DNA of 64,000 nucleotides from a virus. The stretch lies in the IMG/VR virus record IMGVR_UViG_3300009168_000004, positions 11,336-75,335 of that record. One strand, 5' to 3'. The translations under genes and the position numbers were made by a program. Below, in pieces: positions 1-5,615 of this stretch (within the stretch, counting starts at the first letter, position 1; every line of letters begins with the position of its first letter). The notes beneath the pieces were generated by a model that ran no database searches, had not been told where the DNA came from, and saw nothing but the letters and a program-made list of their open reading frames with translations.

Positions 1-142
1 TGCTCGGGTCCTTGCTGCACTGCTCCGCCCAGAAGTGGGCCAGCGCCATGTAGCGACGATCCCACTTGTCCTGGTTCAGACGCGGCAGGCGGTAGTCCTC
101 CTCGGGGCCTCCGAGCCCGCTGAGATCGATCTCATCGCCCAT
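1..142 (-). CDS. dCMP deaminase, N-terminal part (runs off the left edge)
   Basis: Not in the ORF track. Manual translation from ATG at 142 gives MGDEIDLSGLGGPEEDYRLPRLNQDKWDRRYMALAHFWAEQCSKDPS, matching the WD.xxM.LA...SKDPST start of dCMP deaminases. Confidence 0.75.
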   Translation of the reverse strand, partial: MGDEIDLSGLGGPEEDYRLPRLNQDKWDRRYMALAHFWAEQCSKDPS

Positions 143-593
143 CGTGGTCACCGACGGGCTTCCCGGCATTCATCTCGTCGTACCACCACGCGATGCGGCG
201 GTTCAGGATCGCCCGCTGGTCCGCGTCCGGGGGCTTCCACCCGGCGGGCTTCACCACGTCGAGCGAGTTCTTCCGCTTGGATCTGTCGTCGTCCCCGCCG
301 GTCGCCCGCTCCTTCGCCATGTTCGCCCTCTGGACGGTGTCCCAGAGCTCGCCCCAGGGCAGCCCCATCATGTGCCCGGTGCCCAAGGCGACGTAGACGA
401 GGTCGAGCAGCGCGTCCGCCGCCTTCTGAAGGCTGCCCTCCTCGACCGCCAGCTTGTACTCCAGCAGCTCCTCCATCATGAAGTCGAACCGGAACTTGCT
501 GTCGCCCTCGCTGAGCAGCTTCGGCGGGCCGGCGTCCGACCGATCGAGCCCGAACTTCCTGTGGAAGGCGCCGACGTCTTCAAACATTCCCAT
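132..593 (-). CDS. MazG-like/all-alpha NTP pyrophosphohydrolase
   Basis: V..FH.KFG, EELLEY, ADALLDLVYVALG and VQRANMAK...DVVKPAGWKPP motifs. Confidence 0.85.
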   Translation of the reverse strand: MGMFEDVGAFHRKFGLDRSDAGPPKLLSEGDSKFRFDFMMEELLEYKLAVEEGSLQKAADALLDLVYVALGTGHMMGLPWGELWDTVQRANMAKERATGGDDDRSKRKNSLDVVKPAGWKPPDADQRAILNRRIAWWYDEMNAGKPVGDHDGR

Positions 594-1437
594 TCTGCTT
601 CTCCTGTGCCAGGTAGGTGTCCATGTCGTTCTTGAAGACGTGGAGCGAGGTCATGTGCATACTGTAGGTCCAGGGCACGATCTCGTTCCACACCTGCGGG
701 TTCAGCCGGCGGCACTGCTCGATGACCCAGAGCAGGAGCCGGACGGCGAGGTAGCAATCGTCGTTGTAGTGCCGGATGAGGTCGCAGGACCTGAGCGGAT
801 ACCAGATCATCGCCCGCTTGTCCCGGACCATGATCTGGTAGCCCAGGGTGCAGACCTTTCGGCCCCCGTCGGACAGCCCCGTGTCCTCCGGGAAGAACAG
901 CGGGATGTAAGCCTGCCTTGTGTGGGGCTCCCGAGCCAGCAGGTCGATCAAATCCTGGAGGTCCCCGTAACCATGGGCGATCCCGTACTTGGGCCGGTTG
1001 TCCACCGCTGGCCATTTGCGAAGCCCGTACTCGCCGGCCGGCGGCTTGGGCAGGACCCCATCGTCGGTCCGACGGGCGAACTTCGGCCAGAGCCGTTCCA
1101 TGTACGTGTGGTTGAAGCGTTCGGTTTTGAACTTCGCTGCCGACAGGCCCCACGGCCACTTCGCCCACTGGGTTCCAGGGTTCAGGGGCTCGCCCCCGAC
1201 GCGCTCGAGGAAGTGGTCGTCGGCCCACGGCCGATTGCAGTTCGTGTCCTGTCGCCAGTGCTCCAAGCCTTCGCCCCCGTGCAGGGGCACGCTCACGTTC
1301 ACGTCCTGGAGCTCGAACGTGTCCGTGTTGACCGGGACGCCCTGCCACCGCTCAGTCTTGACCGGCGGGGCCTTTCTCATCTCCGCCTTCAGCTTCTCCC
1401 TCAGCTCCGTGAACGTCTCCGCTTGCACCGCCAGCAT
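580..1437 (-). CDS. Thymidylate synthase-fold enzyme, probably dCMP-specific (hydroxymethylase-like)
   Basis: TRQAY, catalytic Cys in VCTLGYQ, RSCDLIRHYNDD (Asp at the E. coli Asn177 position) and SLHVF. Confidence 0.8.
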   Translation of the reverse strand: MLAVQAETFTELREKLKAEMRKAPPVKTERWQGVPVNTDTFELQDVNVSVPLHGGEGLEHWRQDTNCNRPWADDHFLERVGGEPLNPGTQWAKWPWGLSAAKFKTERFNHTYMERLWPKFARRTDDGVLPKPPAGEYGLRKWPAVDNRPKYGIAHGYGDLQDLIDLLAREPHTRQAYIPLFFPEDTGLSDGGRKVCTLGYQIMVRDKRAMIWYPLRSCDLIRHYNDDCYLAVRLLLWVIEQCRRLNPQVWNEIVPWTYSMHMTSLHVFKNDMDTYLAQEKQNGNV

Positions 1438-1699
1438 ACTTCTCCGCCTCCATCTTTGCCCTGGCCTCCGGCGTCATCGCGTGGACCAGGAAGTTGCATC
1501 CGTCCTTCTTGATGTCGGTCACCACGCCGCACTTATCACAGGACCCCGTCTCAAAGAAAGTGTTCGCCTCCGACATGGTCAACCGCTGACCGCAGCCGGC
1601 GCAGGAGAACTTCTGGTACACGTCCGCCCCTCGAGCGATCGCATCGTTGGCTGCGATCACGACTTCGTCGAACGGGTGGTTGAGCTTATTCGCTGACAC
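1352..1699 (-). CDS. Small Zn-ribbon protein
   Basis: CAGC...CDKC pairs. The GTG start at 1699 overlaps the end of the upstream MTase gene. Confidence 0.6.
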   Translation of the reverse strand: MSANKLNHPFDEVVIAANDAIARGADVYQKFSCAGCGQRLTMSEANTFFETGSCDKCGVVTDIKKDGCNFLVHAMTPEARAKMEAEKYAGGASGDVHGAEGEAEGGDEKGPAGQD

Positions 1700-3104
1700 T
1701 GGCTGGCTCCGTTGATTGGGGAACTCCCCGGGGAATTTTACGGGGAGTTCTGGGACTTCTTGTGCGAACGCGGGGAGCATCCTCAGTCCTGGCGGCGCGG
1801 GGCGGCGGGGCGATGGGCTTCATCCCGTACTTGTCCACCCGGACGGCGCACCGACGGGAGAGCCAGCAGGCCCCGCAGGCCTTCTTCTGGTCCGTGTAGC
1901 CCACGTTCTGACAGTACCAGGTCTTGGCCTCGTCCACGTGCTCGTTGGGCTGATTGACCCGCTCGCCCGTCGTCTCGAACGGCTCCTTCTTGATGTGCGC
2001 CATGATCTGCTTCGAGACGTACGTGCAGAACTGGATGGGCATGGCCTTGCCGGTCTGCCGGACCATGTGCTGGTTCAGGTCGTGGCTCCACTCCCCGCGG
2101 TCGTTGAGGACGGTTCCGTAGAAGACGAAGTCGTCGGGGAAGCCCTGGATGCGGGCGCGCTCCCGGACGGTGTAGGGCTCGCCCCGGTGGAAGTGGACCG
2201 AGGCGTTGCCGCCGGTCAGGACGTGCGCCGGTCCGTCCCAGTGGCCCTTGAGGAACCCGATCCGCTTGACCATGGGGTTGTCGCCCCGCGCCGCCCGCTC
2301 CTTCTTCGACTCCTCGCTCGGGTGGTACTCCAGGGTGAAGCCGCCCTTCTTGTCGCGGAAGTACTCCTTCACCTCATCCCATGAGTTCTTCTTCCTGTAC
2401 CTGCCGAGGTTCAGGGCGCGGAAGCAGTCCAGCGTCCCGTCGGCCGGATCGTGGTTTGGAAAGTTGCCGCGAGCCCTGGGCTCGGGCAGGTCGCCGATCA
2501 CGTCCTTGACCTTCAGCGAGTGGACGGCCTCGCCGGGGATGAAGGTCCACTTCTCCTTCCGCAGCGCGCCCAGCATGAACATCCGGTCTCGCCCCTTCTG
2601 AACGTTGCCGTAGCCCCAGTTGCTGACCCACTCCGGGAAGAGGTCGTAGTCCGGCAGCAGCTCGTGATACTTCGCCATCGGGAACGCCATGAAGGACTTG
2701 GGCAGGTCGTCCATCACGAAGTACCGGGGCTTGAACTCCGCCACCAGCTCGCAGAAGAGCGGGATGTCTGCGGGGTCGAACATCTTCTCGCGCTGGCCGG
2801 GGTTGGCTCCGGACAGGCGGCTGAAGTTGCCGCACTCCGGGTGGCCGAGGGCGATGTCCGCGTTGCTGAACCTCTGGAACTCCTCCTCGGTCATCGTCGG
2901 CCGGTCGTTCGGGAAGAGCGCACCGGGGTAGTTGACCTCGAAGGTGTTCTGCCCGTGGGCGTCCTTCTCGTGGTAGTACTTCCGCCACTCCACGTTGCCT
3001 TCGATCTTGAACCCGGCTGCTCGGGCTCCGATCAGCATCGATCCGATGCCGCAGGTTATGCCGACGGCCCTGAGCTGGTCATCGGTCTTCGGTCGTCGAG
3101 CCAT
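1686..3104 (-). CDS. Non-canonical C5-cytosine methyltransferase family protein (candidate carboxymethyltransferase)
   Basis: Motif I TCGIGS, motif IV GHPECGNFS, motif VI FVMDDL (normally ENV), motif VIII QKGRDRMF, motif IX TVRERARIQGFPDDF, motif X RQTGKAMP (normally GNA/GNS). C-terminal four-Cys cluster. Confidence 0.85.
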   Translation of the reverse strand: MARRPKTDDQLRAVGITCGIGSMLIGARAAGFKIEGNVEWRKYYHEKDAHGQNTFEVNYPGALFPNDRPTMTEEEFQRFSNADIALGHPECGNFSRLSGANPGQREKMFDPADIPLFCELVAEFKPRYFVMDDLPKSFMAFPMAKYHELLPDYDLFPEWVSNWGYGNVQKGRDRMFMLGALRKEKWTFIPGEAVHSLKVKDVIGDLPEPRARGNFPNHDPADGTLDCFRALNLGRYRKKNSWDEVKEYFRDKKGGFTLEYHPSEESKKERAARGDNPMVKRIGFLKGHWDGPAHVLTGGNASVHFHRGEPYTVRERARIQGFPDDFVFYGTVLNDRGEWSHDLNQHMVRQTGKAMPIQFCTYVSKQIMAHIKKEPFETTGERVNQPNEHVDEAKTWYCQNVGYTDQKKACGACWLSRRCAVRVDKYGMKPIAPPPRAARTEDAPRVRTRSPRTPRKIPRGVPQSTEPASVSE

Positions 3105-3105
3105 G

Positions 3106-4476
3106 TCAATACTGCTCCCCTGTGAAGATCATGACGAGCAGCTTACGATAGTCCTCGGGGGATCTGTCCACCTCCTTTGTCCGCAGGGGGATCTTGGGAG
3201 CTTCTGCGAGCCCCCTCGGCAGGTCTTCGCTGAACATCGCCCGCAGCAGCCCCTTGTCCCGACGGTCGATCCAGGGCACGCCCATCGCCCCCTCGACCAC
3301 GGACCGGGCCAGGAATGGGGACCTCAGCTCGATCGCGTGCCGCATCATCACCCGGTCGAGCCGGGGCAGGTGCCACATGACCATCTCCTGGAAGATGTCG
3401 CTGTACTGAGAGTCGTATCGCATCGCTCGGCCGTAGCCGCCGAAGCACTCGTCGGCCCCGTCCCCGGTCAGGACCACGGGCTCGCTGATCGCGTTGGCCA
3501 GCGCAATCTGGGGGATCAGGGAGCCGAGGTCGACGGGCTCCTGCATGTAGTGCAGGCCCTCCTCCAGGGTTCCGGCCTCCCAGCTAATCACCTTGGCCTC
3601 CGCATCGTTCTCGTTCATCAGGAGCTGCACCCTAGCAAGCTCCTGCGCGTTCGTCAGGTCGGTGGGGTGCTCGACGGGCTGGGCGTAGTAGGGGACGACC
3701 TGGTCGCTGAACCTGCGGGCCAGGGTGTAGACGATCGAGCTGTCGAGCCCGCCCGAGACGAGGCAGGCCACTGGCACGTCGGCCGACAGGACCCGCCGCT
3801 TCGTGGCCTTCACGATCTCCTCCCTGAGGTCGTCGTAGTTGCTGTGCCACTGGGGCTCCAGCTTGTCGACGACCTGCGCGATGACTCGGCCCGACGGGAA
3901 GAGGCGCACGTACTCTCCGGGCAGGACCTTCTTGATCTCGTTGTAGGGCGTCCTCCGCTGGTCCGGGCAGTAGCCCCACTTGATGCAGGCGGACATGTAG
4001 ACCTTGTCGAAGGTCACCGGACCGCGGGACTTCAGAGGGTCCAGCTCGGAGCAGGCGGCGACGATCTTGTCGGCTCGGTAGTAGAGCGGCTTCTGCGCCA
4101 GGTAGTCGACCAGGCAGTGGAGAGACTCCTCGTTGGAGTTCAAGGCGACGATCGACCAGAAGCCGTCGTACTCGGTGAAGCCCATCGGGCCCTGGTCGAT
4201 CCACGTGTCCATCGCGATGGTGCTGTCGCAGTCGGCTCCGGGGAAGCGCTCCCGGAAGTCCAGGATCTCGCCGACGAACCCGACGGACCACCCCTTCCGG
4301 TGCATGGGCTGATCGTTCTCTGGCCCCAGGCCCACGATGGGCAGGCGGACGTGGCCGATCGCCCCCGTCCTGGTCTGGGCGATCCGGGGCTCACGCGTGC
4401 CCCTGTGCTTCATCATCTCCACCGCTGCCGCGATGTCCTCGCCCTTCGCGCCGAGCTCGGCGTACACTCCGCACAT
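3106..4476 (-). CDS. Asparagine synthetase B-like glutamine amidotransferase
   Basis: N-terminal MCG (Ntn Cys), HRG, GHVRLPIVG, PP-loop SGGLDSS, TGDGADECFGGY and ELRSPFL. Confidence 0.92.
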   Translation of the reverse strand: MCGVYAELGAKGEDIAAAVEMMKHRGTREPRIAQTRTGAIGHVRLPIVGLGPENDQPMHRKGWSVGFVGEILDFRERFPGADCDSTIAMDTWIDQGPMGFTEYDGFWSIVALNSNEESLHCLVDYLAQKPLYYRADKIVAACSELDPLKSRGPVTFDKVYMSACIKWGYCPDQRRTPYNEIKKVLPGEYVRLFPSGRVIAQVVDKLEPQWHSNYDDLREEIVKATKRRVLSADVPVACLVSGGLDSSIVYTLARRFSDQVVPYYAQPVEHPTDLTNAQELARVQLLMNENDAEAKVISWEAGTLEEGLHYMQEPVDLGSLIPQIALANAISEPVVLTGDGADECFGGYGRAMRYDSQYSDIFQEMVMWHLPRLDRVMMRHAIELRSPFLARSVVEGAMGVPWIDRRDKGLLRAMFSEDLPRGLAEAPKIPLRTKEVDRSPEDYRKLLVMIFTGEQY

Positions 4477-4614: not shown

Positions 4615-4881
4615 TCAGTCTGTCTTCTTGGCCGGCGGGCTCCGGGGCAGGAGCGGCTTCGCGTCCGGGTTGAAGAGGTTGCGGCCGGAGCCGAACGTGT
4701 AGTCCTCAGCGCTCCGGCTGCGACCTGGCATCCCTGCTGTGCGGCGGACGGGGCGCTGTGGGGGCGGAAGGTCCGTTATGAGGCGTGTGAGCTCCCTCTT
4801 GCTCCTCTGCCGGATCGCGTACAGCGCCAGGACGGCGACGACGAAGACCAGGATTGCGATTGCCCAAGCTATCGTGTTCAT
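4615..4881 (-). CDS. Small membrane-anchored hypothetical protein
   Basis: MNTIAWAIAILVFVVAVLALYAIR hydrophobic N-terminus; ATGA overlap with the upstream gene. Confidence 0.65.
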   Translation of the reverse strand: MNTIAWAIAILVFVVAVLALYAIRQRSKRELTRLITDLPPPQRPVRRTAGMPGRSRSAEDYTFGSGRNLFNPDAKPLLPRSPPAKKTD

Positions 4882-5150
4882 TTGTCTCTCTGTGCTTCTG
4901 GAATGCCGAGGTGTGCGTACCCGGCGATGTCGTCCCAAGTATCCTTCAGGTCCGGGTCGCCCGTGAGCAGGCGGTGGACTTTGTGCGCGATCATCCGGAG
5001 CGAAGCCCTCTGCCCCCGGCTCATCGCCTGCCAGTTCTTGGCCTTCTCCCAGATCTCGATCGTGGCCTCGCTGATCTCCGCTCCGTCGTCCCAGTTGCCG
5101 TGCGTCGACTTCCGCTCTTCTCGAAGTTCCTTCGTCGTGCTCGTAGACAT
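4878..5150 (-). CDS. DUF6378-like phage protein
   Basis: ER.STHG, MIAHKVHRLLTGDP and DTWDDIAGYA motifs. Confidence 0.75.
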   Translation of the reverse strand: MSTSTTKELREERKSTHGNWDDGAEISEATIEIWEKAKNWQAMSRGQRASLRMIAHKVHRLLTGDPDLKDTWDDIAGYAHLGIPEAQRDK

Positions 5151-5593
5151 CAGTATCGTCCTTGGTACAGGTCAAGAAGGAGCAGGCCGACCAGCGCCCG
5201 CACCGTCGGGTCGTTGTAGAGCAGCGTCCGGCCGGAGGTGTGCGGGATCAGCCGCCAGATCACGCCGTCCACGAGCTGTGGGTGTATCAGGACTTTTTCA
5301 ATCTTCCGTGAAAGCCGGTGGTTCAATTCCGCCCTGACCTCATCGCCCAGGACTACGACCGTGGTCCCGACGGGAGCGTGGAGCCGGAGCTCGAAGGGGT
5401 GGTCCAGGATGTTGCGGCGGCGGAACGATCGCTCGTAGTCCACGCTGCTGATGGTCGGGGCCACATCCTTGATCAGCCGCCAGAGCCGCCACCCGGCGGA
5501 CCGGATCGGGGTCGCGCACAAGGCGTCGATCGGGCGATCCGAGTGGGGGTTGGTCAGACCCAGCAGAAGCGGGGAGGTCTTCGGTTTGGCCAT
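5150..5593 (-). CDS. Uracil-DNA glycosylase-like fold protein
   Basis: LLLGLTNP, SAGWRLWRL, VVVLG and IPHTSGRTLLYN resemble UDG-superfamily motifs (HPSG-like). Confidence 0.55.
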   Translation of the reverse strand: MAKPKTSPLLLGLTNPHSDRPIDALCATPIRSAGWRLWRLIKDVAPTISSVDYERSFRRRNILDHPFELRLHAPVGTTVVVLGDEVRAELNHRLSRKIEKVLIHPQLVDGVIWRLIPHTSGRTLLYNDPTVRALVGLLLLDLYQGRY

Positions 5594-5615
5594 GAGCTGC
5601 ACCCTGAACCGAACC

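Follow-up and report, generated by a model that had tools for sequence, protein, structure and literature searches.

The question raised by the locus described here is what a divergent relative of thymidylate synthase (TS) makes in a phage that encodes it next to a DNA C5-methyltransferase look-alike and an AsnB-like amidotransferase. The locus lies at the left end of the window, the 64,000-nucleotide stretch of DNA analyzed here, which covers bases 11336 to 75335 of the 75,335-bp contig of IMG/VR virus record IMGVR_UViG_3300009168_000004. A single string of minus-strand genes occupies this end and encodes, in this order, the AsnB-like protein, the methyltransferase look-alike, a zinc-finger open reading frame (ORF), the TS relative, a MazG-like protein, and the start of a deaminase of deoxycytidine monophosphate (dCMP). 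On the basis of sequence comparisons and structural modeling, we propose with moderate confidence that the TS relative is a dCMP C5-modifying enzyme, probably a hydroxymethylase, which makes the precursor of a hypermodified cytosine.

The TS relative is a TS-fold protein of 285 amino acids from a divergent phage clade (580 to 1437, minus strand; phrog_160, E value 1e-21). Its motif RSCDLIRHYNDD begins at residue 216, and Asp227 follows the invariant Arg of the RS.D motif by 11 residues, which is the same spacing as that from Arg166 to Asn177 in Escherichia coli ThyA and from the corresponding Arg to Asp179 in T4 gp42. Since the spacing is identical, the alignment of residues 216 to 227 with both proteins needs no gap, so that Asp227 (codon GAT, 757 to 759, minus strand) falls on the position governing pyrimidine specificity and His223 (codon 769 to 771, minus strand) falls on Gly173. 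The gapless alignments also show that Cys196, Arg174, Arg216, Ser217, Asp219, and His266 are retained; the catalytic Cys146, Arg166, Ser167, Asp169, and His207 of ThyA are thus all present, as Cys196, Arg216, Ser217, Asp219, and His266, the last of these within SLHVF (residues 264 to 268). The catalytic Cys ends the stretch Arg193-Lys-Val-Cys196 (850 to 861, minus strand), which places an Arg at the Leu143 position, and is followed at the His147 position by Thr197, as in T4 gp42, MilA, and AfhB, in place of the His of the E. coli enzyme. Tyr112 is probably the equivalent of E. coli Tyr94, the alignment being less certain there, and the Tyr209 position holds a Phe. Only 19 residues follow His266, compared with approximately 55 after His207 in E. 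coli ThyA.

These features are characteristic of the family as a whole. In an alignment of 78 members sharing 39 to 70% identity, Cys196, Arg193, Arg216, His223, Asp227, Tyr112, and His266 are invariant and Asp219 is nearly so (at least 90% of members), and an Asp occupies the position of residue 227 in 119 of the 120 closest database homologues, which argues that the Asp/His pair is not a chance observation. The position of the invariant His223 is Gly or Val in the characterized TS-fold enzymes that we compared, and in E. coli ThyA, Gly173 lies within 6 Å of C5 of deoxyuridine monophosphate (dUMP) (PMC13326640). The sequence-only reading of this DNA had placed Asp at the Asn177 position and His at the Gly173 position, with SLHVF following, and both the gapless alignments and the conservation in the 78 members bear this out. 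With regard to the start of the protein, the database gene call opens at Met20 (266 amino acids) instead of at the ATG at 1437, the difference being 1381 to 1437 on the minus strand; because homologues conserve the first 19 residues, which are also modeled with high confidence, the upstream ATG is the better start.

The TS relative matched no Pfam family at an E value of ≤0.1, no PF00303 match was found anywhere on the contig, and a search of NCBIfam gave nothing useful for this protein; a precomputed PF00303 match exists for some of its homologues only. A word-based protein search returned 2003 homologues, and a tblastn search returned 178 phage records, about 120 of which are true family members, including proteins from Gordonia, Brevundimonas, Microbacterium, and Streptomyces phages as well as Mycobacterium phage Muddy (gp46), Pseudomonas phage PMBT14, and Serratia phage Serbin. 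Nearly all of these GenBank phage proteins are annotated as "thymidylate synthase." Alignments and a tree place the TS relative in the Muddy gp46-like clade, with PWADDHF and NPG blocks, GRKxCT, and RSCDxxRHxxxD with its invariant His and Asp. A search for longer homologues of 500 to 2000 amino acids found none, and the two longest of 120 homologues of similar length (350 and 390 amino acids) contain no deaminase or MazG domain; a protein atlas does list a viral cluster of TS-deaminase fusions. The AlphaFold2 model of the TS relative has a predicted local distance difference test score (pLDDT) of 89.9 and a predicted template modeling score of 0.91. When this model was compared with the PDB by use of Foldseek, the top matches were MilA, AfhB, and T4 dCMP hydroxymethylase, and every ThyA entry ranked lower; likewise, MilA (1.2e-7) and AfhB (7e-7) ranked first when the family profile was searched against PDB sequences. 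All three proteins are cytosine-nucleotide enzymes.

Published residue rules point in the same direction. The change N177D converts TS to the use of dCMP (PMC13326640, PMC8670742), and in the metagenomic association study MetaGPA, positions 177 and 147 were the pair that best discriminated between cytosine-modified and unmodified contigs (PMC8670742). The TS relative has the cytosine-type residue at both positions (Asp227 and Thr197). Compared with canonical ThyA, it thus lacks the PF00303 match and carries Asp227, Thr197, and Arg193 in place of Asn177, His147, and the hydrophobic residue at the Leu143 position; compared with T4-type dCMP hydroxymethylases, it shares the Asp and the Cys-Thr pair and lacks the acidic residue at the Leu143 position (Asp145 in T4). 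The dCMP-type active site claimed in the sequence-only reading is therefore upheld by the residues at 177 and 147 and by the nearest structures.

The same holds for the claimed clustering with nucleotide pool genes, since Pfam matches identify both genes directly downstream. The first encodes a MazG-like nucleoside triphosphate pyrophosphohydrolase of the PRA-PH family (132 to 593, minus strand; PF01503, E value 1.8e-13; phrog_671, 3.7e-22) and the second a dCMP deaminase, of which the first 56 codons are in the window (2 to 169, minus strand) and the rest lies to its left (L009:10959-11504, 181 amino acids in total; PF00383, E value 3.9e-23; phrog_174, 3.2e-45). This context is conserved across relatives, with a MazG- or dUTPase_2-type gene recurring in related cassettes. 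In the MetaGPA study, TS, PRA-PH, and dCMP deaminase domains co-occur, and such co-occurrences were often specific to cytosine-modified contigs (PMC8670742).

On its other side, the TS relative is linked to the DNA C5-methyltransferase look-alike (1686 to 3104, minus strand; PF00145, E value 2.8e-17, and clade alignment) and to the gene for the AsnB-like glutamine-dependent amidotransferase or adenylating ligase (3106 to 4476, minus strand; PF00733, 4.9e-33, plus GATase_6/7). We examined this linkage in both directions, using 80 IMG/VR loci that encode TS relatives and 53 loci that were found with the methyltransferase clade (GC content of 29 to 65%, identity of 32 to 68%). In the first sample, all nine of the closest viral loci (≥56% identity) have both a methyltransferase look-alike (46 to 69% identity) and an AsnB-like gene (45 to 53%), and none of the 71 more distant loci has both, the only methyltransferase match among them being weak (32%), in a locus that lacks an AsnB-like gene. 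In the second sample, an AsnB-like gene is present in 46 of the 53 loci and a TS relative in 45, most of which show RS(C/N)D and then Asp at +11 (the motif was not displayed for four). Seven of the eight loci lacking a TS relative end near the methyltransferase gene; the true exception is L129 (IMGVR_UViG_3300037466_001900), where a methyltransferase look-alike, an AsnB-like gene, a deaminase gene, and a MazG-like gene are present and no TS relative was detected within 10 kb. The methyltransferase-linked TS relatives fall at three separate places in a quick tree, although one of these joins two long branches and its position is uncertain, and other lineages repeat the set of an AsnB-like gene, an all-alpha pyrophosphohydrolase gene, one or two methyltransferase look-alikes, a TS relative, a deaminase gene, and a family A polymerase gene.

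The linkage is one-sided in that the methyltransferase clade needs the TS relative and not vice versa, which would be expected if alternative second modules work up a precursor supplied by the TS relative. The sequence-only reading had proposed a cytosine modification running alongside the methyltransferase and AsnB chemistry, yielding either two modified pyrimidines or one multistep product. A cytosine modification beside these genes is probable, and since the methyltransferase clade occurs essentially only beside an Asp-type TS relative (45 of the 53 loci), a single multistep product is favored and a merely parallel arrangement with two independent marks is disfavored. No GenBank phage record matched the methyltransferase look-alike at an E value of ≤1e-20, and the three-gene cassette is hence without a cultured model.

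In the methyltransferase clade, the glycines of motif I are retained, as is the catalytic Cys, here within GHPECG (motif IV). Motif VI (FVMDDLP) has DDL in place of ENV, and motif X (KQTGKAMP) has Lys in place of Asn. The AsnB-like protein keeps the N-terminal Met-Cys-Gly and the PP-loop SGGLDS; because of these, it should amidate an adenylated carboxylate with glutamine-derived ammonia. Two Lys-type methyltransferase look-alikes stand in tandem in some lineages (L095:8806-11468 and L097:4422-6829), and in L096 and L097, a small P-loop protein with a faint dNK/dTMP-kinase match is encoded upstream of the AsnB-like gene.

Elsewhere in the TS-relative clade, most members have a different partner. 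A gene for a protein of approximately 270 amino acids without a Pfam match lies near the TS relative in 57 of the 71 distant loci, mostly directly upstream of it (for example, L021:9156-9983), and also at L002:7081-7974 (Muddy gp47), L007:7165-7953, and L108:8181-9014; it is absent from every methyltransferase locus and from the contig of the window. A conserved Cys and, at TS spacing, an R..E.......D motif are present in the protein, and its predicted structure (pLDDT of 91) matched only TS-fold entries, with AfhB first. Neither a comparison of its profile with the TS-relative family by use of hhalign nor a search of that profile against PDB sequences gave anything significant; the modeled fold is nevertheless that of TS, and two GenBank records name the gene "pyrimidine hmase." Judged by these models, most phages of the clade carry two TS-fold genes of the cytosine type, usually in tandem.

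From the fold, the active site, and the gene linkage, we infer a substrate, a product, its route into DNA, and an order of steps. The conserved Cys of a folate-type TS-fold enzyme would attack C6 of dCMP, not of dUMP, and a one-carbon unit would be added at C5, the most likely product being 5-hydroxymethyl-dCMP. The MazG-like pyrophosphohydrolase, which presumably converts dCTP or dUTP to the monophosphate, would supply dCMP from dCTP, and the dCMP deaminase would balance the pools or deaminate part of the product. Kinases of the host and the family A polymerase of the phage would then bring the modified nucleotide into DNA, and after replication, the Lys-type methyltransferase look-alike and the AsnB-like amidotransferase would elaborate the base, giving one hypermodified cytosine. 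More tentatively, it is possible that 5-hydroxymethylcytosine (or a similar C5 handle) is reactivated in DNA by a Cys-dependent C6 attack of the methyltransferase fold and finished by the AsnB-like enzyme to a new amide- or amine-bearing cytosine, and that in most other clade members, an equivalent second step takes place at the nucleotide level via the second cryptic TS-fold enzyme. If this is true, the same second step has drawn on two unrelated C6-attacking folds.

Several points weigh against the proposed pathway to a hypermodified cytosine. No match to a thymidylate kinase was found on the whole contig, and a P-loop motif occurs in no small ORF of the 75.2-kb genome, whereas T4 needs its own kinase, gp1, for making 5-hydroxymethyl-dCDP. 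A kinase or transferase, which the sequence-only reading had proposed to look for to the left of the window, is not among the genes there, and no glycosyltransferase gene is evident beside the cassette. Furthermore, the deaminase gene usually stands directly after that of the TS relative, an arrangement that suits consecutive steps; together with the TS-deaminase fusions, it would suit a route in which the product is deaminated, giving a uracil derivative or thymidine monophosphate (dTMP). The cassette of cultured relatives, with thymidylate kinase, dUTPase, and deaminase genes, resembles one for ordinary dTTP synthesis. The residue at the Leu143 position correlates with the product, being hydrophobic and water excluding where methyl is formed and acidic where hydroxymethyl or hydroxyl is formed (PMC13326640), and the invariant Arg193 fits neither class, although it does differ from the water-excluding residue of the methyl-forming enzymes, which hints at another product. 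Lastly, there is no obvious reaction for a C5-attacking methyltransferase on a cytosine that is already substituted at C5. In published in vitro work, C5 methyltransferases do exchange or derivatize the hydroxymethyl group of 5-hydroxymethylcytosine via the C6 adduct, and a second step at the DNA level is thus chemically conceivable.

Among the alternatives, the one that survives best is a dCMP methylase, the product of which would be 5-methyl-dCMP that either enters DNA as 5-methylcytosine or is deaminated by the adjacent deaminase to dTMP, giving thymidylate without ThyA or ThyX. The DNA of Xanthomonas phage XP12 carries 5-methylcytosine. The N177D variant of the E. coli enzyme and the N229D variant of the Lactobacillus casei enzyme both methylate dCMP (cited in PMC8670742 and PMC13326640), and L. 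casei TS chains with Asp at this position outscore wild-type chains against the family profile. A deaminase gene directly downstream in most lineages and the viral fusion cluster would fit such a route, and the lack of ThyA, ThyX, and a nucleotide kinase of its own would pose no problem for the phage if the end product were dTMP. However, the invariant Arg at the Leu143 position is not hydrophobic, and the protein lacks the C-terminal segment by which ThyA closes its active site for hydride transfer. In addition, ThyX is encoded by some relatives: Brevundimonas phage Polewnik has it elsewhere in the genome, and the Manatee Spring phage (MW202455) carries genes for thymidylate kinase, a pyrophosphohydrolase, ThyX, the second TS-fold protein, and the TS relative in one cassette. 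The co-occurrence of ThyX with the TS relative in these two phages makes a redundant role in dTMP formation unlikely. Plain dTMP supply would also leave the tie of the methyltransferase clade to the TS relative unexplained, and we consider a dCMP methylase unlikely overall.

Less probable still are two independent marks, in which the TS relative and the deaminase would make 5-hydroxymethyl-dUMP (or another thymine replacement) via a cytosine intermediate, and the methyltransferase/AsnB pair would act on unmodified DNA cytosines in the manner of CmoX and CmoY. This would remove the clash at cytosine C5 and would suit the tight adjacency of the TS relative and deaminase genes. The Lys of motif X stands at the place of the Lys in M.MpeI N374K, which is reportedly an engineered carboxymethylating variant. 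AsnB homologues amidate 5-carboxymethylcytosine in phage S-B43 (PMC12783734). However, the clade has HPEC and Lys instead of the CmoX signature of SPPC and Arg350, and no match to CmoA (TIGR00740) was found on the contig or anywhere else in the 100%-complete assembly to which it belongs. TS homologues are unmentioned for CmoX neighborhoods in the CmoX paper (PMC12783734), and a uracil derivative made via dCMP would be a roundabout product.

We regard an ordinary, very divergent, dUMP-using thymidylate synthase with a protonated Asp in place of Asn as improbable, slightly more so than two independent marks. Public records label the proteins thymidylate synthase, and in Muddy, PMBT14, and Yersinia phage P744, the gene stands among those for thymidylate kinase, dUTPase, and dCMP deaminase. 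The phage of the window encodes neither ThyA nor ThyX, and its presumed host lacks ThyA as well. The assembly of that presumed host does encode ThyX, and ThyX co-occurs with the TS relative in phages; moreover, the Asp is invariant, the residue at position 147 likewise fits the cytosine type, PF00303 is not matched, and the nearest structures are all cytosine-specific enzymes. Finally, a flavin-dependent 5-hydroxy-dCMP synthase like RB69 gp48 or AfhB, with the 5-hydroxyl as the handle for later steps, is very improbable despite AfhB being the third-best structural and second-best profile match and sharing the Phe at the Tyr209 position, because D169N, the diagnostic change of all tested enzymes of this type (PMC13326640), is absent, the equivalent Asp219 being kept and nearly invariant, and no glycosyltransferase gene lies beside the cassette.

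As a putative dCMP C5-modifying enzyme, the TS relative can be compared with several known systems. It resembles T4 gp42 (PDB entries 1b5d, 1b49, and 6l18) in its TS fold, the Cys-Thr pair, the identically spaced Asp at the Asn177 position, and the short C terminus, and both enzymes are encoded by phages that also have a dCTPase-type pyrophosphohydrolase and a dCMP deaminase. However, the two share only about 17 to 18% identity with a profile E value of only 2e-4, and the TS relative has Arg instead of Asp at the Leu143 position, His instead of Gly173, and a large insertion (the PWADDHF ... NPG block). Unlike T4, the phage of the window has no deoxynucleoside monophosphate kinase and no glucosyltransferases, the partners being the methyltransferase look-alike and the AsnB-like enzyme. 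MilA, the CMP 5-hydroxymethylase of mildiomycin biosynthesis (PDB entries 5b6d and 5jnh), is the best profile and structural match and shares the Cys-Thr pair, the Asp, and an Arg at the Leu172 position, but it is an enzyme of a Streptomyces antibiotic pathway that prefers a ribonucleotide and has Gly at position 173 and Asp at the Leu143 position. AfhB and RB69 gp48 (PDB entries 9iqu and 9iqc; PMC13326640) are phage TS-fold dCMP enzymes with Cys-Thr, Asp177, and Phe at the Tyr209 position, but they have Asn at position 169 and use flavin and O2, whereas the TS relative keeps Asp169.

The CmoA/CmoX/CmoY system of Synechococcus phage S-B43 also combines a C5-methyltransferase homologue with an asparagine synthetase homologue that amidates a base-borne carboxylate, but it requires CmoA and has SPPC and Arg350, with TS homologues unmentioned for its neighborhoods (PMC12783734); the cassette of the window has HPEC and Lys, no CmoA that we could find, and a linked Asp-type TS relative. 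Muddy gp46 and the proteins of Gordonia cluster CT phages, PMBT14, and Serbin belong to the same family as the TS relative (33 to 45% identity), have the invariant Cys, Arg, His, and Asp, and are followed by dCMP deaminase and family A polymerase genes. They differ in being paired with the second cryptic TS-fold gene (gp47 in Muddy) and a thymidylate kinase gene, and not with the methyltransferase/AsnB pair.

With regard to the genome itself, the first 100 bases of the contig repeat at 75213, and because about 120 bases are common to its head and tail, it is taken to represent an entire phage genome of about 75.2 kb that was assembled as a circle. The contig belongs to a 502-contig assembly, a binned metagenome genome that is 100% complete, and since binning leaves host assignment uncertain, the ThyX-using chromosome of the same assembly may or may not be that of the phage host. 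The stretch is also present in Logan contigs from sediment and soil metagenomes among the sequencing runs searched. Upstream of the AsnB-like gene are two small ORFs (4878 to 5602, minus strand), one DUF6378-like with 90 amino acids and one with 150 amino acids (phrog_12275), which are kept in seven to eight related loci, including the distant L096 and L097, and may be cassette members; an NCBIfam search gave nothing further on them. The zinc-finger-like ORF (1352 to 1780, minus strand, 142 amino acids) shares 95 nucleotides with the 3' end of the methyltransferase gene and 86 nucleotides with the 5' end of the TS-relative gene. Its extent, and even its status as a gene, are doubtful, and since a homologue was found in one related locus only, it is placed outside the core set. 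To the left of the window, beyond the deaminase gene, are genes for a helix-turn-helix protein, an Amidoligase_2 protein, and two gamma-glutamyl cyclotransferase-like proteins. The last three stand in a row at L009:5690-8619, a gene set predicted to make peptide-like modifications, and GGACT-like genes are also present in some related loci (L017, L092, and L094).

In summary, the TS branch described here is widespread, with more than 2000 proteins and members in Mycobacterium phages (including the therapeutic phage Muddy) and in Gordonia, Pseudomonas, Serratia, and Brevundimonas phages, and although its members are annotated as thymidylate synthase, the features of the active site point to a cytosine nucleotide as the substrate. 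The modification strategy is already known, while our literature searches found no paper on this enzyme branch or its cassettes. Hypermodification enables phage DNA to evade restriction and CRISPR systems and is a source of enzymes for epigenetic sequencing. The linkage of the TS relative to a methyltransferase look-alike and an amidotransferase, or else to a second TS-fold gene, defines three-gene and two-gene cassettes that probably make cytosine derivatives not yet described.

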